DNA of 64,000 bases from Alphaproteobacteria bacterium (GCA_963665325.3 CAXXWS020000001.1:132252-196251); one strand, 5' to 3'; shown: positions 31,719-57,500, counted from the first letter of the stretch. Notes: a model not told the origin generated them from the sequence alone. Made by a program: numbers and translations.

Positions 31719-32741
31719 ATGAGAAAAACCCTGCTTGCGACCTCCGCGCTGGCCTTGGCCGGCGCGCTGGCTGCCGGGCCGGCTTCGGCGGCCGACATGC
31801 TGAGCGTCGGCGTCGGCGGCTATATGCAACAGTGGATTGGTGCAGCCGACCGGACTGACGACAGCGACGAGGGCGGTGTCGACATCCAGTCGGACAGCGA
31901 AATCTATTTCAAGGGCTCGATGGAGTCCGACATGGGTCTCAAGTTCGGCGTGCATGTCCAGCTCGAGGCCAACAACGAAGCGCATACCGATCCGAAGGGC
32001 GACGACACCGAGATCGACGAGTCGTTCGCATTCATGAGCGGCGACTTCGGTCGGATCGAGATCGGCCAGCGCGACCCGGTCCATGCGCGCACGCATTACG
32101 GCATCAAGGATGTCGGCGTCGGCCTGAACGCAGGCGACACGCAGAAGTGGATCCCGGGCGCCTATCTCGACACCAATGGCTGGATCGGGGACAACCTGAA
32201 CGTCATCTACATCTCGCCGCGCATGAACGGCGTACAGGTCGGCCTGTCCTACGGGGCGGACTCGGCCAGCGAGAACTCGGTCACCAGCGCACCGAAGAAC
32301 AACGACAACGCCGTGGTCGCCGGCGGCATCAACCTGAACCAGGAACTCGCCGACGCCAGCGTCAAGATTTCGCTCGGCCACCGCGCCGCCGGCACGGACA
32401 TGGACGACGACACGTTCACCAACATGGGCCTTGCGGTCAGCACCGGCGCGTTCGGTTTCAACGTTGCCTATGCCGAGCGCGACAAGGGCACGGGCATGAC
32501 AAAGGACGAGTGGTCGGTCGTGGGCGCCAGCATCAGCTACGCGGACGGCCCGATGTCGGTCAGCCTGGGGCACATGCTCCACGATGTGGAAGACGGCACG
32601 GAGCGCAACGCGACCATGCTCTCGGCCAGCTATTCGCTGGCGCCGGGCGTCGCGTGGAAAAGCTCTGTCTTCGGAGTCGAGGATACCGCCAACGAGACCG
32701 AAGGCACGGCGTTCGTGACCGGCATCACGCTCGGCTTCTGA
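31719..32741 (+). CDS. Alphaproteobacterial outer-membrane porin (cassette 1)
   Basis: Signal peptide, G+.FG...LE, IDE..+.+SG.FG.+E+G, Y.SPR, Y.LAPG, C-terminal Phe. Confidence 0.88.
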   Translation: MRKTLLATSALALAGALAAGPASAADMLSVGVGGYMQQWIGAADRTDDSDEGGVDIQSDSEIYFKGSMESDMGLKFGVHVQLEANNEAHTDPKGDDTEIDESFAFMSGDFGRIEIGQRDPVHARTHYGIKDVGVGLNAGDTQKWIPGAYLDTNGWIGDNLNVIYISPRMNGVQVGLSYGADSASENSVTSAPKNNDNAVVAGGINLNQELADASVKISLGHRAAGTDMDDDTFTNMGLAVSTGAFGFNVAYAERDKGTGMTKDEWSVVGASISYADGPMSVSLGHMLHDVEDGTERNATMLSASYSLAPGVAWKSSVFGVEDTANETEGTAFVTGITLGF

Positions 32742-38796: not shown

Positions 38797-38826
38797 CTTG
38801 TTGGTCACCAGTGGTGACGGAGGCAG

Positions 38827-40602
38827 CTACTCCGCGCCGAACCCGCCGGCAACCGCCGTGTTCCCGTCGATGGCAGCAAAGAAGCGCCCCGCGATTCCGC
38901 TGGGATACTCCCCGGCACGGCTGGGACCGTACAGTGTGTACTCCCAATTACCAGCTCTGTTGGCAGCGTCTCCCGACGTGACACTTCCTCCGGTAGCACC
39001 ACTGGTACCGGAGGCGAAAGCGGTCCGTTGCAAGTTCAACGTCCACCCGCTCATATCGACGCCATCGCCGTTCGTGAACCCGTCGATCGTGCCGCTGACA
39101 TCGGCACCCACGGTAGCGACACCGTATCTCGCCGTCAGCGACGCGTCGGCCGTGAACTCGCCGCGCGCGGCGGTGACGCCGGTAGCCGCATTGGCCGTCC
39201 TCGCATAGAGACCGCCCGCAGGCCCGGTATAGGTGAGGTTGAGCCGGGGCAACTGACCGGCGGCAAGGTTCGCGGCAGCGAACTGGTCTGCGCCACCGTA
39301 GAACACCTGCGCATTATACAGGAACGCGCCGCCCGGCCGTGCGGCTGCCGGCTCGTCCAACCACCAGCCGAAACTCAGCCAGTTGCTGTCCTGCCTGTGA
39401 AGTTGCGCATCGTTCCTGTTGTTAGCCTCCCGATCCGGTAGGAACGTCCAGCCGTTGTTCGCCACAAATGTCGCAGGTCCCGCAGCATTGGCCGGAGTTA
39501 TGGCAATCGTGCAAGGATCAGTGCTGCACGTATAGGTGCCGGAGGCTCCGTGGAAGGTGCCGGTAAACGACGCACCGAAATTCCTGGGGCCGGGAGTAGA
39601 GGTGGCACTATACGTGTAGGTGAGTGTCCTGGAGCCCGTTGCTCCCGGCGCCGGGAAGAACCTGGGATCGAGAAGCCCCTGCGCAGCGGCATCCCGCACG
39701 TCAGCCGCAGTGAGGGTCAAGCCCGCAGGACCGAGAACACCGGTAGTACCGGGAACATTCAAAGTGCCATCGGTCGAGGCACCCGGAAGATGCGCAATTT
39801 GGCCAGTACTCAGACCAGGCCTGTAGATCGACGACGCAACGTCAGCCTCGAAGTCTGCCCGCATCGCATTCGCGATGTTGGAGTAAACGGTGATGCTCTG
39901 CGTAGCACCGTTACTCAGCACCCTGCCGGCCCAACCGGTCGCTCCGGCGTCAGCCGCAGCCATGGCGTCGCCGTGCCAACCGGCCCGGTCCCGCGTGACC
40001 ATGAGATCGCCGGTCAGTCCGCGCGTGATGACAACGTCGGAATTGGAGCCAGCGGTCCAACCCGCCTGCGGTATGCGCACCGGGGTCACCGTAACCGGGT
40101 TCCCGGACGGGCCGCCGGTGAAGACATCGTTGGCACCGCCCGACCGCGTCAGCGCCTCGTGCAGGCCTGCGGCGCGACCGTCCAACTCTGTCATCGCGGC
40201 CATCTTCTGCATGGCGAGCGCGTCGGCAGCAACCTTGGTGAGCCCGGCTGTAGCCGCGCCGCCCTCGGAAGTGGCCATTCCGTCTTCGTCGAGCGTCACC
40301 GTGCAGTCCTCGCCGCCAGCCGGGCAACTGAACTCCACGCCCCCGGACGTGTCCATTCCACCGGCCGCGATCTCCAGCGGGAAGTCGGCAGTGTCAAGCA
40401 GGTACATGTCGCCCTCGGGAAGCGCCGGCAGCATCACGGCCGTCGAGGTCGGCGCCGGGGGCGTCGTCGGCTCCGGGGTCGGCGTGGTGGGCGTCGCAGT
40501 CGGCGCCACCATGCTACTGGAGCTGCCGCCACCGCCGCAGCCTGCGAGGGCCAGAGCCGAAGCGGCCATTGCCACAAAGGCCAGATGTTTAATGGTTCTC
40601 AT
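38827..40602 (-). CDS. Surface lipoprotein with TbpB-like barrel (cassette 2)
   Basis: LAGC-GGGG, Pro/Thr linker, CPAGGEDC, FGWW, terminal VAGGFGAE. Confidence 0.82.
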   Translation of the reverse strand: MRTIKHLAFVAMAASALALAGCGGGGSSSSMVAPTATPTTPTPEPTTPPAPTSTAVMLPALPEGDMYLLDTADFPLEIAAGGMDTSGGVEFSCPAGGEDCTVTLDEDGMATSEGGAATAGLTKVAADALAMQKMAAMTELDGRAAGLHEALTRSGGANDVFTGGPSGNPVTVTPVRIPQAGWTAGSNSDVVITRGLTGDLMVTRDRAGWHGDAMAAADAGATGWAGRVLSNGATQSITVYSNIANAMRADFEADVASSIYRPGLSTGQIAHLPGASTDGTLNVPGTTGVLGPAGLTLTAADVRDAAAQGLLDPRFFPAPGATGSRTLTYTYSATSTPGPRNFGASFTGTFHGASGTYTCSTDPCTIAITPANAAGPATFVANNGWTFLPDREANNRNDAQLHRQDSNWLSFGWWLDEPAAARPGGAFLYNAQVFYGGADQFAAANLAAGQLPRLNLTYTGPAGGLYARTANAATGVTAARGEFTADASLTARYGVATVGADVSGTIDGFTNGDGVDMSGWTLNLQRTAFASGTSGATGGSVTSGDAANRAGNWEYTLYGPSRAGEYPSGIAGRFFAAIDGNTAVAGGFGAE

Positions 40603-40687
40603 CGAACCCTTCTCCTTTCAACCCGGACCGGATTCGGCCGGGCAAACCGTTTGGATCGTTCCTTCGTAGGGTTGTTCGCCGCGCAGA

Positions 40688-42055
40688 TCAGAAGCTGAGC
40701 GTGATGCCGGTCACGAAGGCCGTGCCTTCGGCCGCATCCTGCTCGCCGAAGATGATCGAGCTTCTCGACGCGATGCCCGGCGCCAGCGTGTAGCTGCCGG
40801 AGAGCATGGTCGCGCTGACACTGGAGCCGTCATCGGCATCGGCCATCATGTGGGCCAGGCTGACCGCCATCGGGCCGTCCGAATACATCACGCCGGCGCT
40901 CGCCACCTCGTAGTCCCTGGAGGTGTCCTTCACGAGAACCGTCCGCGCGGTATCGTTCGACGGGTCGTTCTTGTCGCCGGACTCCGCGACAGCGGCTGTC
41001 GTTGCGTCGCCGTCATCGTCCCATGTGTGGCCGGCGACGACATTCACGTCCGGGCTCTTGGCGACCATGTAGGTGCCGCCGTCATGCACGGCGTAGGCGG
41101 CGCTGAAGCCGAACGCGCCCATGCCGACATTAATGCCGAAATTGGTGAACGTCTGGCTGTCGGCCTTCGAGGCCATGGTGTCGAACGCGCCCTTGTTCGA
41201 CGCCTCTGCCGCTGCGGCGCCGTTCGCCAGCGTGTCGAGGCTGGAGCTGGTGCCTTCGGCCTGCGCCGTCGCATAGTCCTCGATGGCCTTAACGTTGGCC
41301 ATGTACGTGCCGACCGAGATCGCAGCGTCGTTCATGCCCGACTTGAGCATCTCCGTCGCGCCGACCTGGCTCTTCTGGTAATGGCCGACGGAGAGCGAGA
41401 CGTTGGTATCGCCCACCGCGCCCGTGTAGTTCAGGCCCAGCGACACCGCGTCTTCGTCATTGTTCACCGGCGAGCCGGCGCCGCTGTCCTCGACGGACTC
41501 CGGGCTGTAGGACACGCCGAACTGCACGCCGCTCAGGCGGGGGGTGTAGTAGGCGATCTTCTGGCTGTCGCCGCCGATCAGATGGCCGGCCGTGCCGAGG
41601 CCCTTGCCGCTGCTTCTGGCGCAGCTGGTCAGGCCGTTGATGAACGAGGCGTCGCCGCAGTTCAGGCCGACGCCGACATCGCCGGTGCCGTAGTGCATGA
41701 GCGTCGTCGGGTCGTCCTCGGAGCCGAGCACGATCTGGCCGAACGAGCCGCCGACCGTGACCTGCGATTCATCGACCACGTCCGCATGGGTGTTGCCCTC
41801 GAACTCGACCTTCACGGAGAAGGTCAGCCCGCTGTCGGCCTCCAGCTTGCCCCTGAAGAAGATTTCGCTGTCCGAATACTGGCTGACGCCGCCATCGCCG
41901 GCGGCGCTGTCGAGACTGGATACACCAATCCATTGCTGCATGTAGCCGCCGACGCCGACCGTCAGCTTCTTCGGCATGTCATCCGCCGAGGCCGGCCCGG
42001 CAGCCAGCGCACCGGCCAGGGCCAGCGCGGAGGTCGCAAGCAGGGTTTTTCTCAT
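40688..42055 (-). CDS. Porin with long loop insertions (cassette 2)
   Basis: Same signal peptide and barrel ends as porin 1; 455 aa versus 340 aa. Confidence 0.85.
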   Translation of the reverse strand: MRKTLLATSALALAGALAAGPASADDMPKKLTVGVGGYMQQWIGVSSLDSAAGDGGVSQYSDSEIFFRGKLEADSGLTFSVKVEFEGNTHADVVDESQVTVGGSFGQIVLGSEDDPTTLMHYGTGDVGVGLNCGDASFINGLTSCARSSGKGLGTAGHLIGGDSQKIAYYTPRLSGVQFGVSYSPESVEDSGAGSPVNNDEDAVSLGLNYTGAVGDTNVSLSVGHYQKSQVGATEMLKSGMNDAAISVGTYMANVKAIEDYATAQAEGTSSSLDTLANGAAAAEASNKGAFDTMASKADSQTFTNFGINVGMGAFGFSAAYAVHDGGTYMVAKSPDVNVVAGHTWDDDGDATTAAVAESGDKNDPSNDTARTVLVKDTSRDYEVASAGVMYSDGPMAVSLAHMMADADDGSSVSATMLSGSYTLAPGIASRSSIIFGEQDAAEGTAFVTGITLSF

Positions 42056-42373
42056 AATCCCCATTCTCCTACTGTTTGAGCGCGCTAACATCGGCACGCA
42101 CACACTCTCAAGCGGAGCGCATGGCAGTTATAGCCGATTCGGTCCGAGACAGGCAACGGCATACAGGCCGGCAAGCCGGCAAACCTACCGTAAATCCCCC
42201 GCCATGGCAGACTTGCCACAGATTCCGGGGGGAGAGCGGGAAAGAGGACAAATTCTTGAGAATTTTTGTGGTTTGCGCTGGAAAAATTCTTGTGGTGTGT
42301 TCGGCGCAGAGGTTGTCGCCGCCGTGCCGAGGCTGGAGGCAGCCGGGCAGGCCGACCTGAAAGGACCCCCTCC

Positions 42374-42853
42374 ATGCCTTATATGAACATGAAATTCCTC
42401 CGCTCGTTCCTGGCGTTTGTGGACTATCGGAACGCTACCCAGGCCGCCGCTAGCCTGAACATCGCTCGCCACAACATCGGGTCCCATGTCGGCTTTGTCG
42501 AAAAGCTGGTGGGCAAGCAGCTGCTCGAAGCGCGCGCATCTCGCCCGGTTCCGGCCGGCGAGGCCGTGCGAACGCAGCTGACTGAAGCCGGGGTTGCATT
42601 CTATTCGAAGGCGCTCACGGCGATGCAGGCGCACGATGCTATGTTCGGTGCCGCCGAGCGGATTCCGGCGGACTCGCACATCATCCGCCTGACCGCAGTG
42701 GCCGGGCTGCTCGAACTGGCGCTCGATACGGCGCGGAACAACCTTTCGGACACGGACCAGAAGCTGCTCAACGCGCTCCTGTTCGAATCCGAACTGGAAA
42801 CCACCGGCGTTCCGACGGGCCGGTTGCACAGGAGCGACGGAACGCCCGGCTGA
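42374..42853 (+). CDS. Short LysR-type HTH regulator, divergent from porin 2
   Basis: NMKFLRSFL...AAASLNI...VEKLVG..LL...LTEAG; only 159 aa. Confidence 0.75.
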   Translation: MPYMNMKFLRSFLAFVDYRNATQAAASLNIARHNIGSHVGFVEKLVGKQLLEARASRPVPAGEAVRTQLTEAGVAFYSKALTAMQAHDAMFGAAERIPADSHIIRLTAVAGLLELALDTARNNLSDTDQKLLNALLFESELETTGVPTGRLHRSDGTPG

Positions 42854-43593
42854 AGCATTGCGGTGGGGCATGACCGTCAGCAGTCGGGTCCGGACCGTAC
42901 TCGCGCGCAGCCCTTCCCGGTTTTCCGTCCCAACATAATGACCGTTTCGGCCTTTCCGGGTCGTCGCGACAGCGGCGACCGCGATAACCGCCGTCCCGGC
43001 AATGCGCCAGACGAGGCGGGTTCCCGGGACGGCGAGGTCAGCCTTCGTCGCCATCGCGGCGCGGGCGGCCCCGGCTTCTTCAAGGTCTGCAACCCGCAGA
43101 CCGGGCCCGGCGGCCGGGCCGCTGTCGGGACCTCCCCGCCCGCGTTCCTCGGCATGCGGCGACACTTGCCGATTGTTGCCTTCGTCGTCCGGGCGCAGGG
43201 GAAATCCGCGAGCACCCGTTCAAGCGCCTGTTCGTCGGTCAGGCCCTCGCGGACGGCGGTGCCACCCGGCGCGTATCCTCTCCGCAACCAAGATGCGAGG
43301 CCGGAAACCCGGCAAACGCCCGAGAAAACGCCGCCTCGTCCGCGATGTCCCCGACACGCGACCGGCCGCATGCTGTTGAAGCCGGACCTGGCGCCCGAAA
43401 GATCAAACCGCCGTCCGCGGGCACCGGATACGACCTGTCGTCGCCGACGAACCCGCATTGTCCTCGCCCAGACCGGGAACGGGGGTTCGGAAAGAGCACA
43501 TGCGTCGAGTCCGGGGGCGGTGGCACTGCCCCGATATCGTTGAACGCGGCAACGGCAACCCTCCGGCAGCGCCCCGGGCTCTCCCGGGGTTTC

Positions 43594-43680
43594 GAACTGT
43601 CCCCGTATGCGGGGAAACGCCTCGCGATTAGCAATGCCAACTCACTGATCCATGGGTCTATCCCCGATCAGCGGGGAATG
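43594..43680 (-). CRISPR. Degenerate type I-E mini-array: two repeats, one spacer of about 33-34 nt
   Basis: Minus strand CATTCCCCGCTGATCGGGGATAGACCC-spacer-CGTTTCCCCGCATACGGGGACAGTTC; about 61-bp period; 150 bp downstream of cas6e. Confidence 0.75.
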
Positions 43681-43829
43681 TCATTCATGCCGGAAGCCCG
43701 GCGGCCCTTCCGCAGTCGAATTCGATGTCCCGGTCTCACCGCCCGGACACCGGTTCGCCTTCACTCCATTCCGCTCCCTTCAACATCGGGCAGCCTGACG
43801 ACGAATACGACGATCGCAAAACGTCTTCG

Positions 43830-44624
43830 TCAAGACTGCGACAATATCCGACCCGGAGGCCGCAGCAGCAGCATACCGTACCCGTAGGCGCAATGCCGAC
43901 CGATACCCCGTTCCAGCAACTCGCCGAACCCGGACCCATCCGAAATCGTGATCGCTCCCTGAATCGTGGTGTCCGGTCCTTCCACGCCCCCATTCCGAGC
44001 GGCCCGATCACGCCGGAAACCCGCCAAACGGCTGGATGCACGGTCCAATGTCACCCACGGCGTCAGCCGTTCCGACAGCCAATCGAGATAAACCGCTTCG
44101 CGCGTTCGTCCTGCCTTTTTCATGCCGTCCGGGTCCGCTCCGAATTCCGTCAATACCTCCAGCATGAACGCGTCCAGTTCAGCGCCTGCCTTGTATGTCC
44201 TGCCGTTCGCGGTCTCGAGGTCCCCGGTCAGCCTGCGGACCGGTCTTGCACGCAGGTCGAATCCCAGTTTCTGGCCGACCCGCCATTCCCCGGGCATCGT
44301 CTTGCTCTGCATTGCTTCGGTCCGCAGCACGGCAAGATGATCTGGCAAGGCGTAGCAGCGCGCCCGTCCGGCAAGCTCCTCGGCATTGCATCTCGAGTAG
44401 GCGTACAGATAACCCGTTGCCCGCCGGGGTGGAACGAGCAGGCGGAACGGGCGCAATAATCCCGGGCCCAGGGCTTCATCCAACAGGTGGTGCAGCGCCC
44501 GGCCTTCATCGAAATCGAAGAGCCTTCCACGGTGCCTGACCCATCCGCGTTCGTCCGCCCATAACCCGAGGGCTTTCGTCTCCATGGGAACCCGGACGAG
44601 GTAGAGTGGACCCCGTTCCGTCAT
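43830..44624 (-). CDS. cas6e: Type I-E Cas6e/Cse3
   Basis: DEGRALHHLL, F.LR..PVRR, GIGRH.AYGYGMLLL glycine loop. Confidence 0.92.
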   Translation of the reverse strand: MTERGPLYLVRVPMETKALGLWADERGWVRHRGRLFDFDEGRALHHLLDEALGPGLLRPFRLLVPPRRATGYLYAYSRCNAEELAGRARCYALPDHLAVLRTEAMQSKTMPGEWRVGQKLGFDLRARPVRRLTGDLETANGRTYKAGAELDAFMLEVLTEFGADPDGMKKAGRTREAVYLDWLSERLTPWVTLDRASSRLAGFRRDRAARNGGVEGPDTTIQGAITISDGSGFGELLERGIGRHCAYGYGMLLLRPPGRILSQS

Positions 44625-45343
44625 GGGGCCTCCCTTGCCGGGAGGGTGCCTTCGACCACTCTGCGCGAGCCGCCGTGCAGTCCACGGAGCCAATTTCGCC
44701 GGTCCTGCAGGTCCCGTACCCTGCCGGCGCTGTCGAGTTTATCCTCCGGTCCTTCCCCGGCCGGCCAGAGTGCACGGCATCCCCGCCCGATGCTGGGCAG
44801 TGCGCAAAGCGCCCCGTAGACGTTCCCGGCCACCACCCAGCGCGCCGCGCCGGGATCCAGCAGGGGCGTCGAAGGCAGGCACGGCTTTCGCCCGAGGAAC
44901 AATGGCCGAGCCGGGTGATCAAGCGCCCGGGCAATCTCCTCGATTTGCGGAGGGTCTTCGGCCGGATCCAGACGCAGTACTAGCGTCACTGCCGCGTCTG
45001 CTTCGTAATCGCGCCGCCTGCGGTGCGGGGCCGCGTAGCTTGACCCGGTCCGACCTTCGGGCGAGCCACATGTGGTCCATCCCCAATCCGTCCGGTCGAG
45101 CAGCACATTCTGCACATCGGTCAGCCTGGTTCCCTCGCGGTCGCGGCGGGCACCGAACACAAGTCGGTCTTGGAGGGACTGGAGCGAGTTACGGTCCCGG
45201 TAGTCCCAGCCCAGGGCATTGCCGATCAGTCCCGCCAGCATTGAAGATCCGGGAAAGTCCCGTACCGGTCCCCAATGGTCGACCGCGACATCTCCGAAGG
45301 CCATCAGCGGGGCCTGCAGCCTCAGGACCAGCCAACGTCTCAC
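44621..45343 (-). CDS. cas5e: Type I-E Cas5e
   Basis: LRLQAPLMAFG, P..SMLAGLIGNALG, PARPLFLGRKPCLPS. Confidence 0.93.
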   Translation of the reverse strand: MRRWLVLRLQAPLMAFGDVAVDHWGPVRDFPGSSMLAGLIGNALGWDYRDRNSLQSLQDRLVFGARRDREGTRLTDVQNVLLDRTDWGWTTCGSPEGRTGSSYAAPHRRRRDYEADAAVTLVLRLDPAEDPPQIEEIARALDHPARPLFLGRKPCLPSTPLLDPGAARWVVAGNVYGALCALPSIGRGCRALWPAGEGPEDKLDSAGRVRDLQDRRNWLRGLHGGSRRVVEGTLPAREAP

Positions 45344-46491
45344 GGCATGTCCCTTGCGACAACACCCGCAGCCCACTCGGCGATATCCGCCAGCGATCCG
45401 CGTTCGGAGCCCGGGATCGCCTCGTCTGCAAGCGACATGAACCGCCGTTCCTCTCCGGTCGCATAGACATCGTCCAGAGCCCGCAGGTGCGAAGCCAGTG
45501 CGGCGACGGCCCGTTCGACATTCGCCGGGCATGGGGTGCGCCAGGCTCCCGCCAGGCTGCGCGGTTGCCGGCGTCCGGCCTCGAGCAGCATGAAGGCGGC
45601 CCGCCCGTAGGGTGCGGTCGAACCCTGCTTGGCTCCGGGAGAAATTTCGGCGACCAGATAGACGAGATTGTGCAGCACCCGGCCCGCTAAATCGGCATCG
45701 TCTCCGAGATTCGAAACAAGTCCGTTCAGGTCAACGACGACATAGCCGTAGAATAGGCCGGAAGTCAGTTCGGTTTCGTGCATGAGATCGGTCGACGGCT
45801 CGTCTGCCGCCAAATCGTCGACTGCCGTCAGGAAGTCGTACTCCGCTTCTTCCGCATGTACCGTGAAAGCGTGGGCGACATGCACCGGGGCAGTGATATT
45901 GGCGGCCGGATCCGAAGTGACCATTCGCCCGAACAGCGCCGCCGCCAGTCCACCGGGCAGCGCCGTCGCTTCCCGCATGGCCCGGAAATTCGCATGGTAA
46001 TCGTCGCGCCAGGTCTTGGCCGCCTTTGCCGCCAGTTCCGCGGCTCGCTCAACGTCTCCGTCTCCGGCATCGAGCGCGGCATTCGCGAGGCGTTCGGTTT
46101 CGCTCCTGAGCCAGTCGATCTCCGGAGCGCCCAGCAGCAGGGTCTGGCGGGACTTCTTCTCGACTCCCCGCGGCCCGTAAACGGCCGCCTGCACTTCCGG
46201 TTCCAGGGCTTCGACGATTTCATCGGGAAATTGTTCGCGAAGCGGTTTCATGACCTTGGTTGTCACCAGCTCGCGGGACCTGAAATCCTCCGTCACGCCC
46301 GCGATGCCATACAGGGAATGCACGTCTTCGGCATGCCGCCAGTGCCGCTTGAGGCATTGCGACGACACCCTGGTGCGCAGCACGCCGCCAAAGGGAAGCC
46401 GTTTCGCCAGTCCGCTGTCGTCCCGGTTCAGCAAGGCGGCGGTATAGGCGCTCAGAGTATGGATCTGGAGAAAACGCGGTTGCGCTGTCAT
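45340..46491 (-). CDS. cas7: Type I-E Cas7/Cse4
   Basis: LNRDDSG.AK, RVSSQCLKRHWR, ALFGRM, VAHAFTVH. Confidence 0.95.
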   Translation of the reverse strand: MTAQPRFLQIHTLSAYTAALLNRDDSGLAKRLPFGGVLRTRVSSQCLKRHWRHAEDVHSLYGIAGVTEDFRSRELVTTKVMKPLREQFPDEIVEALEPEVQAAVYGPRGVEKKSRQTLLLGAPEIDWLRSETERLANAALDAGDGDVERAAELAAKAAKTWRDDYHANFRAMREATALPGGLAAALFGRMVTSDPAANITAPVHVAHAFTVHAEEAEYDFLTAVDDLAADEPSTDLMHETELTSGLFYGYVVVDLNGLVSNLGDDADLAGRVLHNLVYLVAEISPGAKQGSTAPYGRAAFMLLEAGRRQPRSLAGAWRTPCPANVERAVAALASHLRALDDVYATGEERRFMSLADEAIPGSERGSLADIAEWAAGVVARDMP

Positions 46492-47070
46492 TCAGGCCGA
46501 GCCCTCTTCGTTCGCTGTTTCCGTCTTCCATTCGGCCCGGTCCAGGCGCCGGTAGTAGGCCCGGGCCAGAAACGGACCGTACCTCTCGGGCAGCAGCAGG
46601 GCATAGGCAATGTCCGGGACGTTCACGCCGCTTCCGGGAACGATCGTTCTCGACAGAGAGCGGGCTGCGCGCTGGAAAAGAGCCGCGCGCTGCGCCCCGT
46701 GCGTTCTCATGAGCAGCGCCAGCCTTCGTTCGCTCAGCGCCGGGTAGGGACGCTCGGCATTCCCTGGCCATCCCGGGTCGCCTCCGTCGCACAACACCGC
46801 ACCGAGACGCCGCGCCCCATTGTGCAGTTGAATCCCTTCGCGCGGCGTCAGAATGGCAAGTGTGCGGACGATCGCCATCCACTCTCTTTCGCGGTCGGAC
46901 CGCCCGATCGTTCGGGGGTGTCTCGATGCGAGCCTCCAGAAAACGGGAGCGCCGACACCGCCGCTCATTCGCCCGAGTTCGGCCAGCGGACCGGGTCCGA
47001 GTTGCCGGAGCGTCGCCGCCGCCGAAAGGGCGGCCTTGCCGATGTCGTTATTTCCGACGTCGTTACACAC
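46492..47070 (-). CDS. cse2: Type I-E Cas11/Cse2
   Basis: GPLAEL.RM, FWRL, LG..L, LSERRL..L, ARAYYR; lies between cas8e and cas7. Confidence 0.85.
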   Translation of the reverse strand: MCNDVGNNDIGKAALSAAATLRQLGPGPLAELGRMSGGVGAPVFWRLASRHPRTIGRSDREREWMAIVRTLAILTPREGIQLHNGARRLGAVLCDGGDPGWPGNAERPYPALSERRLALLMRTHGAQRAALFQRAARSLSRTIVPGSGVNVPDIAYALLLPERYGPFLARAYYRRLDRAEWKTETANEEGSA

Positions 47071-48580
47071 GAGCCGATTTCATCGCATGTTCGAACAGTT
47101 CGGGAAATTCCCGTCGAACCATGTTGGCAAGCGCCCGATCCGCACGCGCATGCGCCGCGGCCCGCTTCAGCGCCGGGCATCTCATACCGGGCAGCGCCAT
47201 TGCGAACTCCCGCTGCGTGACTCTCCAGAGAGTTTCTAGAAACTCGAACCTTGCGTCAGCATCTCCGAAACGGCGCAGGAGGTAGGGGAAGAACATCCGG
47301 TCCGCTGCGTAGTGCAGCCTGCCTTCCGCTTCCCGGGCCCGGGCAAAGTGTTTCGCGCCGACCGCTTCCGGATTTCCCCCGGCGGCCGCCAGGGCGAGCG
47401 AGTATCCCAGCGCCCGCTGGAATTTATCGATTTCCTCCATTTGGGCTCGCGCCTCTCCCGCCGCATCGGACGATGGCGGGAGCGTCTTCCCCGCCGGCAT
47501 CGCCACGATACGCGACTTGAACCCCTCCGTCTTGCCGGGGCCCCGCGACAGGGCTTCAGCGATGAGCACCATGTCACGGCCCTGCTCCACTTCCCCCCGC
47601 TGCGCCAGGACCGGAAGGGTCCAGTCGCCCGAAAAGAGAAGCTCACACAGCTTCGAATAGTCGAGCCGCGCTTCCCCCACCGTCAGGCTCTTCCGTTCCT
47701 TCCTGTGAACCGGCGCCCAGGGATCGCCTACGTCTCCCCTCCAACGCCTGGCGTCGATCCGCGCAGCACGGGATGTCGACCCGAACGCGAGGAACCTGCC
47801 GCCCTTCTCGACGAGGCGTACGCGGCGGCAGACTTCGATGAACCAGGGATCCAGGCTTGCAAGGTCGAGCTGCTGTCCTTCGGGCCAGTCCAGACACCAG
47901 AGCGCTGCTGGGCCGCCGACCGTTCCGCGCGAAGCGCCTTCCCCTGCCGCGCGCTGCTCCAGGAGGCGCCCGACGTCGCGCGCCCACCACGCTGACGGAT
48001 CCAGCGACAGGTCTACTCCTCCCCTCGCCGGCGCCAGTCCGACAAGGGGACGGCTCGCATACCCCCCGTTCATGCGGGCGATCCCGTTCTTGCCGTTGCC
48101 GCTATATCCGCTCATCGTTTGCAGGCACACCAGCGCCAGAATCCAGTCTTCCGCCGTGGCCCGCCGGTTGACCGCCCGTTTCACGTCATGGTTGCGCGCC
48201 GTAATGAGGACGTCCAACGCGTCCGGCGTCTCGATCGCTCTCCACCTCAGTCCGCCGGGGTCCGGAGGCTGCAGGAAGGCTGGAAGGTCGGGCTCCCGGG
48301 CGACGAGTCGCCAAGGCGCGTCGCCGGGATAACTTGGGACAAGTCCGCGCAACATTCCGGCCCATACACCCGGCTGCTGCGGCAGTTGCCTCCGCCCCGC
48401 CTGCCAGAGAGCAAAAGCGGCGAGCTGGACCAAGAACATGTGCCAGGGCGCCCGCTGATGCGCGCGCAGCGACGGAAATTCAGTCACCTCCCCACGTGTC
48501 ATTGCCGCAAACAGTTCCGGTAGGGAAACCCTTCGATCGGGCCGAACGGCAATTGCCCCGTCGGTTATGAGATTGACCAT
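47063..48580 (-). CDS. cse1: Type I-E Cas8e/Cse1
   Basis: LRAHQR.PWHMFLVQL, PAFLQPP, NHDVK, ARMNGG, FIEVCRRVRL, GDPW. Confidence 0.9.
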   Translation of the reverse strand: MVNLITDGAIAVRPDRRVSLPELFAAMTRGEVTEFPSLRAHQRAPWHMFLVQLAAFALWQAGRRQLPQQPGVWAGMLRGLVPSYPGDAPWRLVAREPDLPAFLQPPDPGGLRWRAIETPDALDVLITARNHDVKRAVNRRATAEDWILALVCLQTMSGYSGNGKNGIARMNGGYASRPLVGLAPARGGVDLSLDPSAWWARDVGRLLEQRAAGEGASRGTVGGPAALWCLDWPEGQQLDLASLDPWFIEVCRRVRLVEKGGRFLAFGSTSRAARIDARRWRGDVGDPWAPVHRKERKSLTVGEARLDYSKLCELLFSGDWTLPVLAQRGEVEQGRDMVLIAEALSRGPGKTEGFKSRIVAMPAGKTLPPSSDAAGEARAQMEEIDKFQRALGYSLALAAAGGNPEAVGAKHFARAREAEGRLHYAADRMFFPYLLRRFGDADARFEFLETLWRVTQREFAMALPGMRCPALKRAAAHARADRALANMVRREFPELFEHAMKSARV

Positions 48581-48693
48581 TTGTCGCTTCCCGCACAATG
48601 TTCGTTACGTTCGCCGCCGCCGTCGAGGGCGCATTTCGGTAACCGTGAAAATACCCTCTGCGAGTTGAGGGCCGTGCGTGCGCCGCCTCCCAA

Positions 48694-48780
48694 GACAAGG
48701 GAGTGGATGCCCGTCATGTCTCCAGGCTGTCTCTTTTGAGACCGCATCCAGAAGTCTGAAGGCTTCGAGCCCAGGATCAT
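48694..48780 (-). pseudogene. Possible cas3 N-terminal stub
   Basis: MILGSKPSDFW...G....HSLV resembles the start of a Cas3 HD domain (P..FW.K...HPL..H) at the position cas3 normally occupies. Confidence 0.35.
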
Positions 48781-49018
48781 CGGGGTCGGCTTCTCGCTAG
48801 CTTGTGGCTGGCGCAAACCTGAAATACCGCAGAGCCTGCCCCCGGGGCTCGAAGCCGGCAACCCAAGAAGCTCCCGCGGTCCGTCGTAATGAGAAACCGA
48901 ACGGATTCCGCCAGTGTGAGCCCTTGACCTATTCTTGCAAGCCCCAGTAGATGGAGCGCGTTCTGGAATGCTGCGTTCCTAGCGTTTCCGCGCGCAGGTT
49001 GGAAACGAATGTAAACGA

Positions 49019-49240
49019 ATGTACACCACAACACAGATCATCCAAGGGTTCCTGGCTGGCAGCCTCACGCGAGAAGAGGCGATGCACAAGCTGCATATGT
49101 CCTCATACTCCCAACTGCTGAACGCATTGGCCGACCGCGGAGTAGAACCGCCGAAGCCGCCTCCCGAACAGGTTCGAGCGGAGCTGGAAGCGGCGAGGCC
49201 GATCCTGCGCATGATGGAGACCAATCGTCATGGCTCTTGA
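49019..49240 (+). CDS. Small putative antitoxin (HTH-like)
   Basis: 73 aa, G.LT..EA...L....Y..LL..LA..G; overlaps the PIN gene; tandem AAACGAATGT repeat over its start. Confidence 0.6.
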   Translation: MYTTTQIIQGFLAGSLTREEAMHKLHMSSYSQLLNALADRGVEPPKPPPEQVRAELEAARPILRMMETNRHGS

Positions 49241-49814
49241 ACTCGCCATTCCCGACAGCGGTCCTCTGATATCTCTGGGCCGGGTGGCTCGGCTGGACCT
49301 GCTCGATCGGTTCAACTGCCCCATCGTGATTACCGACATGGTCGCCGATGAGGTGCTACGCGGTTTACCGGGCGCGCCGGACGCCGCAGTCTTTCGTGAC
49401 TGGTTCAGCGGCCGGGGCAACAGGATCCAGACGGTAGAGACAAGCATTGGGATTCTCTGGAGCGCAATACCTCCCGAGCGGCGAGATATCCTGAAGAGGA
49501 TCCGGGACGCCGGTGAGACGTCGATCTGGCAATTTTCCAACACGATCAGGGAAACCATGGGTCCCGGCGATTACGGCCTCCTTCTGTTCGAGGAGAGCCG
49601 GGTAAAGACGATGGATTTCGGGCCTCGCCTTGCGAAAATCACAACTTGGTCGTTTCTGATTGGACTGGAGGAAATGGGTGCCATTCCTTCAGCTGAAGAT
49701 TTCCATCGGGATATTGCGGACGCCAACCGGATAATTCCGAAGGACCCTTTCGAGTACCGAGCGGAACGTGCGGAACCAGGCACAAGTTGGACGGACATGT
49801 ACGACATGACATGA
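49230..49814 (+). CDS. PIN-like domain protein (putative toxin)
   Basis: PDSGPLISL...LDLL, V.DEV, DAGE. Confidence 0.7.
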   Translation: MALELAIPDSGPLISLGRVARLDLLDRFNCPIVITDMVADEVLRGLPGAPDAAVFRDWFSGRGNRIQTVETSIGILWSAIPPERRDILKRIRDAGETSIWQFSNTIRETMGPGDYGLLLFEESRVKTMDFGPRLAKITTWSFLIGLEEMGAIPSAEDFHRDIADANRIIPKDPFEYRAERAEPGTSWTDMYDMT

Positions 49815-49965
49815 AGAACACTGGGGGAGGAAGCTTGGCAAAGACCCCTGGCGCGGTTGTGCTGACCGACAACCGGGAGGACCTTGTCGACGGCTTCACG
49901 CCTTCAGTGCGGTACCGGAGGCGCTTAGAATTTCGAGGAAAACTGAGACGGCGGGGTATCCGGGG

Positions 49966-50886
49966 TCAGGACCAGCGATCCAGACCGGTTTCGCGCACAG
50001 CTGACCGCACCCTGTCGTGATAGCGCTTCTCGGTGTCCCGGGCGGCCTGCGGACGGGTCTCCCAAGCCTCGTTGCAACGGTTCAGGAACCGGTCGGTGTT
50101 TTCTGTAGCCGCTTCCAATTCCTCTTTCAGGAGAAAGGTGAGTTCGTTCTCCTCCTCGGTGAACGACCCTGCGGTGCTGTTGCCCTCTGAAAGCGAGAGG
50201 TTATCGATAAACCGCCGACACGATATTTCAACGAGATCCACGGCTCCGGACGACAGGTCATCCTGCCAAGTTTCCGGGATGACGGCGCCAAGCATGGCCG
50301 CGAACGCCACCTCGGGCAAGGGACGTGCTTCGGACTCCGCCAGATGCTTCGTGTGCTCGAAAAGGCCCATTACCGCGACTGGCGGGTTCGCGATCCCGCG
50401 TGCCGAAAAGTGCCTTGCGAGCACCTCCCTGTAGATGGTTCTGCGGTTGCGGCTCGCCAGCACATCGATCCCGTGCACCCAGGCCTGAGCGTAGATCTGC
50501 TGATCGTTCCCGTTCCTGTCCGTGAAAGCGGCGCTCGGCAGGGCGGCAGCGGCGTGACGGTAACTCTCACTGCCCAGATCGGGGAAAAACAGGTAGGCTG
50601 TATCGTTGCGTAGGGATTCTGCCCGCCACCACTCATATGCTGCATCGCTCGCAGCCACCGCGGCGGCGTCGGTTTCCTGCGGGCTCCAGTTCCGGTTACG
50701 CCTGCGGTATCCCTGGATGTGTTCCGAGGCTTGCATCGGCAAGTGATTCTCAAGCTCCCGATGCACCATGGGCAAAATGGCGACGGACCGCCCGCGCAAC
50801 TCTTCCAGGGCGGTCAGATACCGGCGCGGCGTGGGCTGGCGGATGATATTGGTGTCAGCCGCAACTGCCGCGCGGAGGCCGGTCAT
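49966..50886 (-). CDS. PIN-like domain protein with C-terminal extension
   Basis: AADTNII, V.REL, NDQQI.AQA...G.DVLASRN. Confidence 0.6.
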   Translation of the reverse strand: MTGLRAAVAADTNIIRQPTPRRYLTALEELRGRSVAILPMVHRELENHLPMQASEHIQGYRRRNRNWSPQETDAAAVAASDAAYEWWRAESLRNDTAYLFFPDLGSESYRHAAAALPSAAFTDRNGNDQQIYAQAWVHGIDVLASRNRRTIYREVLARHFSARGIANPPVAVMGLFEHTKHLAESEARPLPEVAFAAMLGAVIPETWQDDLSSGAVDLVEISCRRFIDNLSLSEGNSTAGSFTEEENELTFLLKEELEAATENTDRFLNRCNEAWETRPQAARDTEKRYHDRVRSAVRETGLDRWS

Positions 50887-51260
50887 TCGTATGCCGCCCT
50901 GGCGAGCGTCGCGAGCCGCTTCCGGTCGGCCTGACAGGCCTCATACAGCTTCATGTCCCCCACCTCCCAGGCCCGCATGGCCATTTCGAAGGGCGTAAGC
51001 TCGCCATACTCGCGGAACATGTCCAGCGAGGCCTCCACATAGGCCGCCCTCTCCGGTGTGGTCCCGAGAACTGGAATGACAGCGTCCCGGATTGACCGAT
51101 GCAGACGTGCCTCGCTCTCTCTGGCTTTGACGCCGGCGATTTCCGAAGAAGCCACGAGCCCTCTCCTGTCCGTCGGTCCCGGTTGCCGTTCCTGAACGCC
51201 AAATATGACCTTTGAGGCCGCTGACGACAAGCGATGAGACCGGCCACAGGAACATAACAA
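50883..51260 (-). CDS. Small hypothetical protein coupled to the PIN-like gene (start uncertain)
   Basis: ATGA overlap; helical C-terminus. Confidence 0.45.
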   Translation of the reverse strand: MLCSCGRSHRLSSAASKVIFGVQERQPGPTDRRGLVASSEIAGVKARESEARLHRSIRDAVIPVLGTTPERAAYVEASLDMFREYGELTPFEMAMRAWEVGDMKLYEACQADRKRLATLARAAYE

Positions 51261-51479
51261 GAGCGGGCCGGCGGTATTGCGTGGCTCCGATACTCCCGAC
51301 GCCTCTAGAACCGCACCGAAAGCGTGAAGCCGTCAATCTATTTTTGTAAATCCCTTCGAGAAGGACCGCTATTCTAGCGCCATCCTGAGTGTCGTGCTGG
51401 TCGGCGACAACCACCTGCTCGCCAAGCTGCGCTGTCCCGACTTCCAGCCCATCGCATCGCGCATCCGACAGCGTCTCGC

Positions 51480-51895
51480 CATGACGCGTGCCGAACCGAA
51501 ATTCCCGCTGAGCGGCGATGACCGGCAGGACCTTCTCGACGACTGTCTTTCCTTCTGCGGGACGGTCGCTGTGCCGGAGCCCCCGTCGAGGGCTCCCGAG
51601 TGCCGCGATCCGTGCGACCGGAAATTCCTGGAACTCGCGCTTGCCGGGCAGGCCGATGCGCTTATGACGGGCGACGGCGATCTCCTGGCGCTCGCGGAAG
51701 AATTCTGCGTGCCCATGTTGATCGACGCCGTGCAATCCGATTCGGCTGAATTCGTTCGCGGTTTGAACGAGGCTCCCATCGATGAGATCCAGCGTGCCTC
51801 CGAGCTTCTTCTGGCGATCAAAAAGGCCGTAGTTGAAGACTATCGGCCCGGCCGGCTCCCGCTGACCGGTTCGGCGAATGTCATGACCTTGCCAG
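51480..51895 (+). pseudogene. Chimeric remnant: PIN toxin fragment fused to AAA_14 ATPase fragment
   Basis: CRDPCDRKFLELA...GDGDLL followed by IDEIQRA.ELLLAIKK...LTGSANVMTLP (copy of about 16525-16690). Confidence 0.75.
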
Positions 51896-51899
51896 GATC

Positions 51900-52216
51900 C
51901 GCTCGTTGCCGCCTACCATCGCCATCACGGACCCCGATTTCGGCGCGCTCAGCGTCACGTCCCGGCTGGGCCAGTGCGTGATGCCGCCGTCGATTTCCTT
52001 GCGCCCGAGGCGGCGCCTGCCCGGAACTTCGCCCTCCAGCACCGACCGGAAGCGCTCGGGATCCACCGGACCGGAGAGGCCGAGCGCCTCGGCGCCCCCG
52101 ACCGCACAGGCGCTGACCTCGCGGTGCGCCCCGTCGTCCTTCGCATAGTAGCCATCCTTCTCGAAATAGCGCACGCCCTGCGCCGGCGAGGCGATCTTAC
52201 CGATGGACGTTACCAT
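51900..52216 (-). pseudogene. TrwC/MobF relaxase N-terminal fragment
   Basis: YFEKDGYY, A.ALGLSG.VD, D.TLSAPKS.SV. Confidence 0.82.
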
Positions 52217-52435
52217 CGAATGCGTCCTCCCGGCTCGGTGGACAAAGCAGTCCGGCGGACGCGGAAATGCAGGGGTAGTGTCTGTCCATACGGGCTAGAT
52301 ATGCGCTCGCAGACCTTTGAACAAAAAGCGAATATACCTGCGTCCATCATTGCCCTTCTGTGGCCGCAAATGGCGTCGAATGTCCTCCCGACAAGGGCTT
52401 GTATCTTGCACGGCCACGCCGTACATATGCGCGGC

Positions 52436-52726
52436 ATGATCGTCCGCTCCATCCGCCATCGGGGAGTCCGCCAGCTATACGAGAACAATTCGTCCCGGCT
52501 GCTCAAACAGGACCTGGTGGAGCGGCTGCGCGGCATCCTCGCCGCGCTGGCCATGGCCGAGACCATGGAGGGCTTCATTCGCGATGCGGCACCCGGATGG
52601 CGGGTTCACCGGCTTTCCGGCGAGCGCCGGAACGAATGGAGCGTTTCCGTATCGGGCAACTGGCGGATTACATTCGAGGAACGGGACGGCACAATCGAGC
52701 GCCTGAACTTGGAGGACTACCACTGA
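52436..52726 (+). CDS. higB: HigB-like (RelE/ParE) toxin
   Basis: SIRHRG...LY, HRLSGER...WSVSVSGNWRITF...LEDYH. Confidence 0.9.
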   Translation: MIVRSIRHRGVRQLYENNSSRLLKQDLVERLRGILAALAMAETMEGFIRDAAPGWRVHRLSGERRNEWSVSVSGNWRITFEERDGTIERLNLEDYH

Positions 52727-53031
52727 TGACCGACAGCGGCATCAAGATGGGGATGACGCCCCCGCACCCCGGCGCCTTCATCCGGACCGAGGCCCTTGAG
52801 GAGTTGGGATTGAGCGTTTCGGCGGCGGCGCGGATTCTTGGCGTGCGCCGGGCGACGCTATCGGACTTGCTAAACGGCAACGCCTCGCTGTCGCCCGAAA
52901 TGGCGATGCGGGTGGAGAAGGCGTTCGGCCTCAGCATGGACCTGCTGCTCCGGATGCAGGCATGGCATGACGCGACGCAGATGCGGGCCCGGGCCGACGA
53001 GATCGACGTTCGGCGCTATCAGCCAGCATGA
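52726..53031 (+). CDS. higA: HigA antitoxin
   Basis: PPHPG..I....L..LGLSV..AA..LGV.R..LS.LLNG...LSPEMA. Confidence 0.92.
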   Translation: MTDSGIKMGMTPPHPGAFIRTEALEELGLSVSAAARILGVRRATLSDLLNGNASLSPEMAMRVEKAFGLSMDLLLRMQAWHDATQMRARADEIDVRRYQPA

Positions 53032-53179
53032 TTGTCGCAGCCAAGCGCAGGCAGAGCGTGCCTAGTTCTGGCAACTCATTGATTCCATACAAGAAATACC
53101 CCGATACGCCGTTTAGCAAGGCTTGTCCGCAGGGTCAAGTTCTCCTTCCAAGGTCACCGAATCCGGGAAGGCGGAAGCG

Positions 53180-53404
53180 ATGCAGCAAGACGGAAACGGC
53201 CGGGAACGGGCGCCATCGTACGGCCCGACCGCGAACGACAACCTCGGCTCGAAGGTCGGGACTGGCGGTGGGCCGGAAGCCCGGATCGAGGACGCGGTGA
53301 TGCATCTTGCCCGGCTGCTCGGGCGGCTGATCGCGCGCGGACGGTTCGCCCGGCCGGAAGCCGCCAACGACAATGCGCCGGAGAAGGAGGCGAACGACCG
53401 ATAG
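53180..53404 (+). CDS. Small hypothetical protein upstream of serine recombinase
   Basis: ANDN repeats, HLARLLGRLIAR. Confidence 0.5.
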   Translation: MQQDGNGRERAPSYGPTANDNLGSKVGTGGGPEARIEDAVMHLARLLGRLIARGRFARPEAANDNAPEKEANDR

Positions 53405-53417
53405 GAGACCCGAGACC

Positions 53418-56477: not shown

Positions 56478-57500
56478 ATGAGAAAAACCCTGCTTGCGAC
56501 CTCTGCGCTGGCCTTTGCCGGCGCGCTGGCTGCCGGGCCGGCCTCGGCGGCCGACATGCTGAGCGTCGGCGTCGGCGGCTACATGCAGCAATGGATCGGT
56601 GCAGCCGACCGGACTGACGACAGCGACGAGGGCGGTGTCGACATCCAGTCGGACAGCGAAATCTATTTCAAGGGCTCGATGGAGTCCGACATGGGTCTCA
56701 AGTTCGGCGTGCATGTCCAGCTCGAGGCGAACAACGAGTCGCACAAGGACGATCCGGGCGACGACACCGAGATCGACGAGTCGTTCGCATTCATGAGCGG
56801 CGACTTCGGTCGGATCGAGATCGGCCAGCGCGACCCGGTCCATGCGCGCACGCATTACGGCATCAAGGATGTCGGCGTCGGCCTGAACGCAGGCGACACG
56901 CAGAAGTGGATCCCGGGCGCCTATCTCGACACCAATGGCTGGATCGGGGACAACCTGAACGTCATCTACATCTCGCCGCGCATGAACGGCGTACAGGTCG
57001 GCCTGTCCTACGGGGCGGACTCGGCCAGCGAGAACTCGGTCACCAGCGCGCCGAAGAACAATGACAACGCCGTGGTCGCCGGCGGCATCAACCTGAACCA
57101 GGAACTCGCCGACGCCAGCGTCAAGATTTCGCTCGGCCACCGCGCCGCCGGCACGGACATGGACGACGACACGTTCACCAATATGGGCCTTGCGGTCAGC
57201 ACCGGCGCGTTCGGTTTCAACGTTGCCTATGCCGAGCGCGACAAGGGCACGGGCATGACAAAGGACGAGTGGTCGGTCGTGGGCGCCAGCATCAGCTACG
57301 CGGACGGCCCGATGTCGGTCAGCCTGGGGCATATGCTCCACGACGTGGAAGACGGCACGGAGCGCAACGCGACCATGCTCTCGGCCAGCTATTCGCTGGC
57401 GCCGGGCGTCGCGTGGAAAAGCTCTGTCTTCGGCGTCGAGGACACCGCCAACGAGACCGAAGGCACGGCGTTCGTGACCGGCATCACGCTCGGCTTCTGA
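56478..57500 (+). CDS. Porin (cassette 3), near-identical to porin 1
   Basis: Same 340-aa length; differs only in one signal-peptide residue and one short loop. Confidence 0.9.
   Translation: MRKTLLATSALAFAGALAAGPASAADMLSVGVGGYMQQWIGAADRTDDSDEGGVDIQSDSEIYFKGSMESDMGLKFGVHVQLEANNESHKDDPGDDTEIDESFAFMSGDFGRIEIGQRDPVHARTHYGIKDVGVGLNAGDTQKWIPGAYLDTNGWIGDNLNVIYISPRMNGVQVGLSYGADSASENSVTSAPKNNDNAVVAGGINLNQELADASVKISLGHRAAGTDMDDDTFTNMGLAVSTGAFGFNVAYAERDKGTGMTKDEWSVVGASISYADGPMSVSLGHMLHDVEDGTERNATMLSASYSLAPGVAWKSSVFGVEDTANETEGTAFVTGITLGF

Follow-up and report, generated by a model that had tools for sequence, protein, structure and literature searches.

An inherited, porin-matching guide in a nuclease-free type I-E Cascade module of an alphaproteobacterium, a putative silencer of porin alleles

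Background

What does a CRISPR (short palindromic repeats, clustered and regularly interspaced) effector do in a bacterium that has kept every gene of the DNA-binding complex and lacks its partner genes for cutting DNA and for acquiring new spacers? The question is raised by a stretch of 64,000 nucleotides (nt), hereafter the window, from an alphaproteobacterial genome (GCA_963665325.3, CAXXWS020000001.1:132252-196251), in which the minus strand at 43592-48580 carries intact cas8e-cse2-cas7-cas5e-cas6e, the five genes of the type I-E effector Cascade, together with a mini-array of two repeats and one spacer. The source genome (G000) comprises 5.58 Mb in five contigs at ~67% G+C and is 100%-complete, and the window (G000:C2:132252-196251) is the terminal part of the 196-kb contig C2.

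We followed this module through genomes of the same family and through metagenome contigs and compared its single guide with the porin genes that adjoin it. Our reading, to which we assign a probability of roughly 55%, is that the module is a nuclease-free, RNA-guided binder that would exclude or silence particular porin alleles and would not serve adaptive immunity; it would be a derived type I-E system cut down to the five Cascade genes and one CRISPR RNA (crRNA) gene. Whether nature turns CRISPR effectors into DNA binders directed at genes is an old debate, conducted over isolated self-targeting spacers. Combined here are the loss of the nuclease, long selection on the binder, an identifiable target family and lesions at the target site in a relative, which makes the idea directly testable. 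If true, the module would be a natural counterpart of CRISPR interference (CRISPRi) acting on outer-membrane porins, proteins that are commonly phage receptors.

Gene content of the locus

The five genes are open and closely packed: the cse2 stop abuts the cas7 ATG, cas7 and cas5e overlap in GTGA, and cas5e and cas6e overlap in ATGA (coordinates in Table 1). All five proteins are 44-67% identical to their counterparts in three canonical type I-E loci (L021-L023), with Cas8e at 49-51% and the product of cse2 at 44-52% to those of the cse2 slot. The score of Cas8e against TIGR02547 lies below that profile's cut-off of 70.05, no match to Cse2 was found in hidden Markov model (HMM) or PDB searches, the AlphaFold2 model of Cse2 (mean predicted local distance difference test score 41.3) was too poor for a fold search, and single-sequence PDB searches with Cas6e, Cse2 and Cas8e came back blank or spurious. 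A profile made for Cas6e matches CasE/Cse3 structures, and the histidine of its LHHLL motif, which we take to be the catalytic residue, and the C-terminal, glycine-rich motif GxGRHxxxGxG are invariant in all seven aligned sequences. Pfam and NCBIfam profiles found no HNH, other nuclease or extra domain in the five proteins.

Whole-genome HMM and tblastn searches of the source genome found no type I-E cas3, cas1 or cas2, and repeat searches found no type I-E repeats beyond two 2-repeat mini-arrays, the one described here and an identical copy on contig C5. Since neither cas3 nor cas1-cas2 is present, the locus is not a complete type I-E system. The sole Cas3 of the genome is of type I-G and belongs to a complete system on contig C4 (818-830 kb; L007 4786-15726) that comprises Cas3g, Csx17, Cas7g, Csb2, Cas4g/Cas1g and 14 repeats of ~37 nt beside a 1160-aa MobF/TraI-like relaxase; a 17-nt piece of the window (37045-37061) is an exact match to part of this I-G array region (E 0.003 for the window alone). 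In G011, the other complete genome with the module, the best match to the cas3_core model reaches 33 bits against a cut-off of 102.45 bits, and neither of the two cas1 genes is cognate, one lying in a locus with a 1046-aa open reading frame (ORF) and 36-nt repeats that is typed by architecture only and the other in an untyped locus. A TniQ model matched nothing in the source genome, though the model's control likewise matched nowhere, and the ORFs flanking the module are relaxase, recombinase, PIN and HigB fragments only. No conserved partner gene was found beside the module, synteny between the lineages described below stopping 58-114 bp upstream of cas8e on one side and, on the other, at the array or shortly past it.

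A preliminary description of the window, made from its sequence alone, had listed five full-length, tightly coupled Cascade genes without an HNH fusion, a two-repeat array with one spacer, broken genes nearby, which proved to be TrwC, PIN/AAA and serine recombinase fragments, and no cas3, cas1 or cas2. Each of these points held (the array is R1-spacer-R2, 43592-43682), the last of them now for the genome as a whole.

A 13.3-kb block of the window (42030-55350), which contains a LysR-like gene, the array, Cascade and mobile-element debris, is 100% identical to G000:C5:359473-372793 at the end of contig C5, so that the module is present twice, provided that the assembly is correct. The identity stops within the porin signal-peptide codons, at a point ~90 bp upstream of that gene's guide-like site; the left flank of the C5 copy bears a different porin allele, and at the other boundary contig C5 ends. 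Recent duplication or gene conversion would account for the block, as would a break of the assembly inside a repeat. Contigs with the locus were found in four DNA sequencing runs from two studies, and one of them, 3311 nt long, spans 42034-45344 with 21 differences, none of those listed lying inside the array.

Relatives and selection

Among 37 genomes of the family, the Cascade-only clade occurs in G000 and G011 only. With metagenome contigs included, the module is found in four lineages: G000, two diverged copies in G011 (G011a, at 93.5% nucleotide identity over 42372-48694 of the window, and G011b, at 88% over 43657-48583), and a metagenome lineage M of three near-identical contigs (89% over 43531-48638). 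The preliminary description had proposed looking in relatives for the same Cascade-only locus with a conserved spacer, and both were found in G011, in two copies, and in lineage M. Outside the genus, the closest relatives, at 64-67% Cas7 identity, belong to ordinary type I-E systems with cas3 upstream and with cas1e-cas2e between cas6e and long arrays. In all four Cascade-only lineages, the cas6e stop, a conserved leader and R1 form an identical junction, so the state without cas1-cas2 is older than their split, and the loss of cas1-cas2 is, judged from this junction, one ancestral deletion common to all four.

All five cas genes are open in each of the four lineages. Ratios of nonsynonymous to synonymous divergence (dN/dS), computed by the Nei-Gojobori method at dS 0.10-0.50, are 0.21-0.29 for cas8e, 0.11-0.20 for cas7, 0.16-0.24 for cas5e and 0.14-0.25 for cas6e; and because the cas1-cas2-less state predates the lineage split, this purifying constraint operated in that state. 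Neutral evolution, which the preliminary description had named as a finding that would speak against it, is thus not what these ratios indicate, and on this measure the module has been kept by selection.

Two further genomes of the family, G012 and G023, carry unrelated canonical type I-E systems, and in other collections we found only distant canonical type I-E systems on plasmids and none on viral contigs. Another type I-E lineage exists within the genus: at L019 (G005:C3:1394-1398 kb), a cas1 match at C3:1394229-1394888 adjoins a Cas7 and a Cas5 that are distantly I-E-like, with identities of 29-32% by tblastn and 41-50% over Cas7 fragments in the genome search.

The crRNA gene and the inheritance of its guide

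The mini-array starts 148 nt past the cas6e stop, and the 8-nt 5' handle of R1, ATAGACCC, is the handle that ends the repeats of the nearest canonical type I-E relatives. The leader/promoter-like block upstream is the same as in the source genome at 60-62 of 66 positions in each of the other three lineages. Between the source genome and lineage M, this block (60/66), R1 (25/29) and R2 (26/29) are set in poorly conserved flanks, with 57 of 103 columns identical in the distal leader (the next 92 nt) and 62 of 124 downstream of the array, and across the lineages the hairpin stems of the repeats are invariant and their loops vary. The promoter block, the repeats and the 5' part of the spacer are thereby islands of conservation amid flanks at 50-55% and provide indirect support for what would be a functional crRNA gene. 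The block overlapping the cas6e stop would drive transcription of the mini-array, and Cas6e would cleave both hairpins to release one crRNA with the 5' handle and a fixed guide. An Rfam search at the array found no family. A 16-codon leader ORF that seemed conserved was dropped as a candidate, only five of its codons being present in lineage M.

In the minimum-free-energy fold, the R1 loop CTGATC (43663-43668) pairs with the complementary spacer bases 4-9, GATCAG (43645-43650), and this pairing replaces the R1 hairpin; the loop reads CCGATC in G011a. Downstream of the array, ~730 nt (42860-43590) have no family match and, compared with G011a, show three indels (12, 13 and 9 nt) yet 28 substitutions (3.8%), fewer than at the synonymous sites of the cas genes.

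The guide is fixed, as the preliminary description had it, in that the spacer has been passed down and not swapped across the lineages. That of G011a has three changes (positions 18, 24 and 28), and in lineage M exactly 12 nt are missing, while the first 18 nt are kept except for changes at positions 6 and 9. G011b has, between good repeats, the short spacers S1 and S2, of which S2 has the same 12-nt deletion as lineage M; both lie behind an insertion sequence (IS) of ~4.1 kb (L017 about 11975-16065, G011:C3) that interrupts the 5'-handle part of R1; its ends occur 19 times in G011, and ATAGA is apparently duplicated at the target. What follows R1 in G011b was at one point taken for a second, different spacer, a call that was withdrawn when it proved to be the end of this 19-copy IS. 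The available text of PMC5159557 reports that Escherichia coli Cascade with a shortened spacer is active, and spacers shortened by exactly 12 nt, as in lineage M and S2, would be compatible with Cascade assembly.

The guide matches a porin family

The guide corresponds to the sense sequence of codons ~39-49 of the adjoining porin family, which encode the first strand after the signal peptide; the porin site has the motif G-[YF]-M-[EQ]-Q-W-[VI]-G just past that peptide. Since the spacer is the coding strand, the crRNA would pair with the template strand. Every sixth base of a type I-E Cascade guide is flipped out and need not pair, and we took as paired positions the spacer positions minus every sixth (28 of 33; 15 of the first 18). 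The porin site was located by scanning each lineage's own locus for likeness to the spacer.

The spacer of the source genome agrees with the porin next to the lineage M Cascade at 23 of 33 positions and at 22 of the 28 paired ones, and four further porin alleles in the genus also reach 22/28. This lineage M match comes from a 12-kb contig, whereas over 11.2 million positions of the source genome the best non-self site reaches 21/28 and none reaches at least 22. The spacer S1 of G011b matches a porin allele of the source genome at 15/15 paired positions, its mismatches being confined to 6, 12 and 18, and when the source genome is scanned with S1, all six sites with at least 14/15 are porin sites. 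Five spacer variants differ within their first 18 nt at positions 4, 6, 9, 12, 13, 15 and 18; at positions 4, 9, 13 and 15 the spacers alternate between the two bases that the porin alleles also have there, and only positions 6 and 12 fall outside the porin repertoire. The spacer matches a host-gene family far above chance, and its best matches are the porin alleles of related genomes, not those of G000 itself; the site in the porin next to the module (codons 39-49, preceded by TAC) agrees at 19/28 paired positions and has a seed mismatch at position 4.

Searches for other origins of the 33-nt spacer returned no exact match in viral contigs with wildcards at every sixth base, only chance matches of 17-25 nt (E at least 3) in plasmids and phages, and no site in the source genome with nine or fewer mismatches. 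A seed-type scan of the source genome gave 11 non-self sites where ~10 were expected, the sole AAG-flanked one lying inside an ORF, and these were set aside as chance.

A porin target competes with another account of the mini-array, that it is a regulatory RNA of the CreR/CreA type guiding Cascade to its own promoter (autorepression) or to the promoter of a nearby toxin (addiction). In the available text of the preprint describing them (10.1101/2023.03.10.532045), such elements direct Cascade to cas or toxin promoters, where it binds without cutting, through a partial match next to an AAG protospacer-adjacent motif (PAM). The anatomy fits, as both have a two-repeat, one-spacer element with the same asymmetric conservation, two degenerate repeats with the 5'-handle part kept in the first and the hairpin part in the second, and in lineage M only the 5' 18 nt of the spacer are conserved. 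However, we found no PAM-flanked partial match beyond chance upstream of cas8e, in the leader or in the window, and the length of the small leader ORF is not conserved in lineage M. The CreR elements described in that text belong to complete systems with Cas3 and normal arrays, whereas here the nuclease is absent altogether and the match lies within a porin coding sequence, which is the better account of the spacer. As no promoter target in cis was found, the element is not a CreR, and we consider this account quite improbable.

Porin alleles and stop codons

Fourteen genomes of the genus without the module have 42 motif sites (porin context was confirmed only for those whose flanks were retrieved), 33 of which carry the seed ATGGA that matches the guide of the source genome, and a site of this type is present in 12 of the 14 genomes. 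The nine porin sites of the source genome are all ATGCA (0/7 ATGGA, plus 2 on C5); they lie on the accessory contigs C2, C4 and C5 only, and the family was not found on C1 and C3, the two largest. G011 has guides with both seeds and six porin paralogs, four of which carry exactly one in-frame stop each, all within the guide site: three have TAG or TAA at guide position 4, and the fourth has TGA at position 12. Apart from the stop, these four genes are open to the normal porin C-terminus, and one has the same translation as an intact paralog. In one of the two intact paralogs, which adjoins the second Cascade (G011b), the Met codon is gone (seed positions 1 and 3), and the other matches S1, the guide cut off by the IS, but for position 15. 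The two complete module-bearing genomes, G000 and G011, thus hold no intact well-matched porin allele, and of the 37 family genomes G011 alone has the motif in stop-bearing versions, the other 36 having none. Since the stops are single in otherwise intact genes, one with a near-twin, they are recent, far younger than the loss of the cas genes.

With so small a sample (two genomes, one metagenome lineage) and gene conversion among the paralogs, one may suspect that both the likeness of spacer and porin and the clustering of stops are coincidence. Against this, the genes are 352-470 codons in length, yet the four single stops all lie within a window of 11 codons, and this in the sole genome of the 37 with three such guides; S1 finds its 15/15 match at porin sites only; and the 22/28 match from the small lineage M contig is equalled nowhere in the 11.2 million background positions. 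We regard coincidence as very improbable indeed.

The stops could also be ordinary escapes from cleavage if a nuclease were supplied in trans by the type I-G Cas3g or by an unrecognised partner. The source genome does have a complete I-G system with Cas3g, and mutations at a seed position (position 4, three times) resemble classical escapes, but G011, the genome with the stops, has no Cas3 helicase match above 33 bits, no conserved partner gene flanks the module, and the five Cascade proteins hold no nuclease domain. Cas3g is specific for its own Cas8g. The I-G spacers of G000 and the spacers of the other array of G011 had no match to the porin site or loci. Cutting in trans therefore appears improbable to us.

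The main rival takes the module for a relic of autoimmunity, in which a complete type I-E system acquired a porin spacer, self-cutting selected for the loss of cas3 and cas1-cas2 and for escape alleles, and the remaining Cascade, with no present action on porins, was kept for another reason or has simply not yet decayed. It draws support from a spacer that is porin-derived along all 33 nt, from the absence of matched intact alleles in the module-bearing genomes, G000 being without a target, from the IS in one array, and from the spacer change between G000 and G011a at about the locus-wide rate. It is harder to reconcile with dN/dS of 0.11-0.29 in four genes over four lineages that share the cas1-cas2-less junction, with promoter, repeats and 5' spacer standing out from their flanks, and with stops in G011 that are far younger than the gene loss. 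A relic accounts for the origin of the present state, not for the long constraint or the recent stops, and we think it unlikely.

Interpretation

Under the reading that we prefer, an RNA-guided binder directed at porin alleles, Cascade would open an R-loop by pairing with the template strand of the porin gene next to its Tyr codon (TAC/TAT), and without Cas3 or another nuclease the bound complex would be a roadblock that silences matching porin alleles. The R-loop would leave the porin site single-stranded and mutation-prone, and binding may select for, or cause, changes at that site. The preliminary description had proposed a domesticated RNA-guided regulator or a silencer of mobile elements. 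A guide that matches porins, and the G011 copies that are broken at that site, agree better with an RNA-guided binder or silencer than with a generic silencer of mobile elements; because the source genome itself has no good target, an antagonistic role, allele exclusion, seems likelier than a simple regulator of a resident gene.

Several observations weigh against this reading. All porins of the source genome mismatch the guide at seed position 4 and offer no good target of its own, so present-day activity there is only putative. In the three bases just 5' of the porin site, where a PAM would lie, almost all alleles have TAC or TAT, and the porin beside the lineage M Cascade has TTT; these differ from the canonical type I-E PAM, AAG (preprint 10.1101/2023.03.10.532045). 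An attempt to derive the PAM of the clade from the 53-repeat array of the canonical relative L021 yielded plasmid matches that were other arrays only and no phage match. The stop at position 12 affects a base that should not pair and is no simple escape. At the array, a consensus scan called no sigma-70 promoter and no terminator, the G+C hairpin included, no RNA run carrying the locus was among the sequencing runs listed, and in G011b the IS separates the array from its promoter. Constraint is uneven as well, cse2 being the least constrained of the five genes (dN/dS 0.41-0.79), and the spacer has diverged between G000 and G011a (3/33) at about the locus-wide rate of 6.5%. Finally, there are few lineages to compare, two genomes and a single metagenome lineage that are related to one another, and the exclusion pattern comes from two related genomes with paralogous sites, which are not independent.

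A bolder version of the same idea, which we put forward tentatively and think rather unlikely, is a natural "allele excluder", in which a Cascade with an inherited guide silences the 5' ends of rival porins, a long-lived R-loop hypermutates the site, the guides track the alleles, and the whole behaves as a selfish drive. C-to-T changes on the displaced strand, with changes at flipped-out bases, would turn matched paralogs into single-stop pseudogenes; guides would evolve without Cas1-Cas2 through point mutation, duplication and the 12-nt deletion, tracking porin alleles; and the module, always beside a mismatched porin on accessory replicons, could replace host porins with its linked allele. 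Of the four G011 stops, three are C-to-T changes on what would be the displaced strand of an R-loop, and the fourth is G-to-A at a flipped-out position. In yeast, the R-loop of dCas9 raises mutation of its target, partly through cytosine deamination on the displaced strand, as the available text of PMC6411842 reports; that case concerns Cas9 in a laboratory eukaryote, with nothing comparable known of a natural Cascade, and R-loop-linked mutation as the origin of the G011 stops is a suggestion only. Nature's first example of targeted mutation linked to a Cascade R-loop may lie in this module, which also offers a route for guide change without Cas1-Cas2.

Comparison with known systems

With canonical type I-E systems the module has in common its five Cascade genes and their order, hairpin repeats of 29 nt and, with the nearest canonical relatives, an identical 8-nt handle; it differs in having no cas3, cas1 or cas2 in the genome, one inherited spacer and a guide to a host-gene family. 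Loss of Cas3, and often of the adaptation genes, is shared with I-E2 (Cas5-HNH), I-F4 (Cas8-HNH), I-E3 (Cas11-nuclease) and CRISPR-associated transposons, variants which, in the available text of recent classification papers (PMC12669027, PMC10910872), replaced Cas3 by an HNH or PD-(D/E)xK domain or joined a transposon. With Cas5e at 240 aa and Cse2 at 192 aa there is no nuclease fusion, so the module is neither I-E2 nor I-E3. One of these papers mentions an incomplete type I-C system as a possible DNA binder. Type IV-A systems likewise perform crRNA-guided binding without cutting on accessory replicons, but with another effector family, a DinG helicase and multi-spacer arrays aimed at plasmids (PMC12669027, available text). 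In function, the module would resemble CRISPRi, type IV-A interference and CreR/CreA guides. A literature search found no description of a Cas3-less type I-E Cascade with a porin-matching fixed guide, the supplementary rare-variant lists of PMC10910872 and PMC12669027, which may include Cas3-less I-E loci, lying outside its scope.

Other features of the window

The LysR-type gene is divergent from the adjoining porin and convergent on the array; compared with G011a it has 3, 2 and 12 substitutions at the three codon positions, and a 42%-identical LysR-type relative lies just upstream of cas8e in G011b. Beyond cas8e, 51328-54733 is a stretch of mobile-element gene fragments (Table 1).

Table 1 Features of the Cascade locus and its surroundings, in window coordinates
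Feature	Position	Strand	Remarks
Guide-like site, porin paralog	31824..31856	+	Allele ATGCAACAGTGGATTGGT; matches S1 of G011b at 15/15
Porin gene next to module	40688..42055	-	PF13609 97.8 bits; guide-like site 41909-41941
LysR-type helix-turn-helix gene	42266..42853	+	PF00126 28.1 bits
G+C hairpin	43572..43589	-	CCCCGGG-AGAG-CCCGGGG, immediately after R2; no T tract
R2	43592..43620	-	Degenerate terminal repeat; hairpin retained, handle part degenerate
Spacer (guide)	43621..43653	-	33 nt, ATGGATCAGTGAGTTGGCATTGCTAATCGCGAG
R1	43654..43682	-	GACATTCCCCGCTGATCGGGGATAGACCC; hairpin CCCCG/CGGGG, 5' handle ATAGACCC
Leader/promoter-like block	43775..43840	-	Conserved; has TTGACG; includes cas6e stop
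cas6e	43830..44624	-	264 aa; PF08798 82.8 bits
cas5e	44621..45343	-	240 aa from GTG 45343; TIGR01868 179.1 bits
cas7	45340..46491	-	383 aa; TIGR01869 302.9 bits, PF09344 300.8 bits
cse2/cas11	46492..47070	-	192 aa; called from position, size and homology to cse2 slot
cas8e	47063..48580	-	505 aa, ATG 48580; TIGR02547 51.8 bits
PIN_3/AAA_14 piece	51394-51981		
TrwC relaxase N-terminus fragment	51881-52294		
HigB-like toxin	within 51974-52726		
Serine recombinase, split	53331-54256		
Guide-like site	56583..56615	+	In porin paralog 56406-57500, PF13609 125.1 bits

On either side of the module, 31000-42100 and 56400-64000 consist of repeated cassettes of porin (PF13609), Slam (PF04575 and TPR_Slam) and large ORFs with no family, which have many 75-98% identical paralogs on C2, C4 and C5. 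The end of C4 (1093-1103 kb) repeats the porin/Slam stretch at C2:99-110 kb with equal spacing and identity, which suggests that the assembly breaks within these cassettes.

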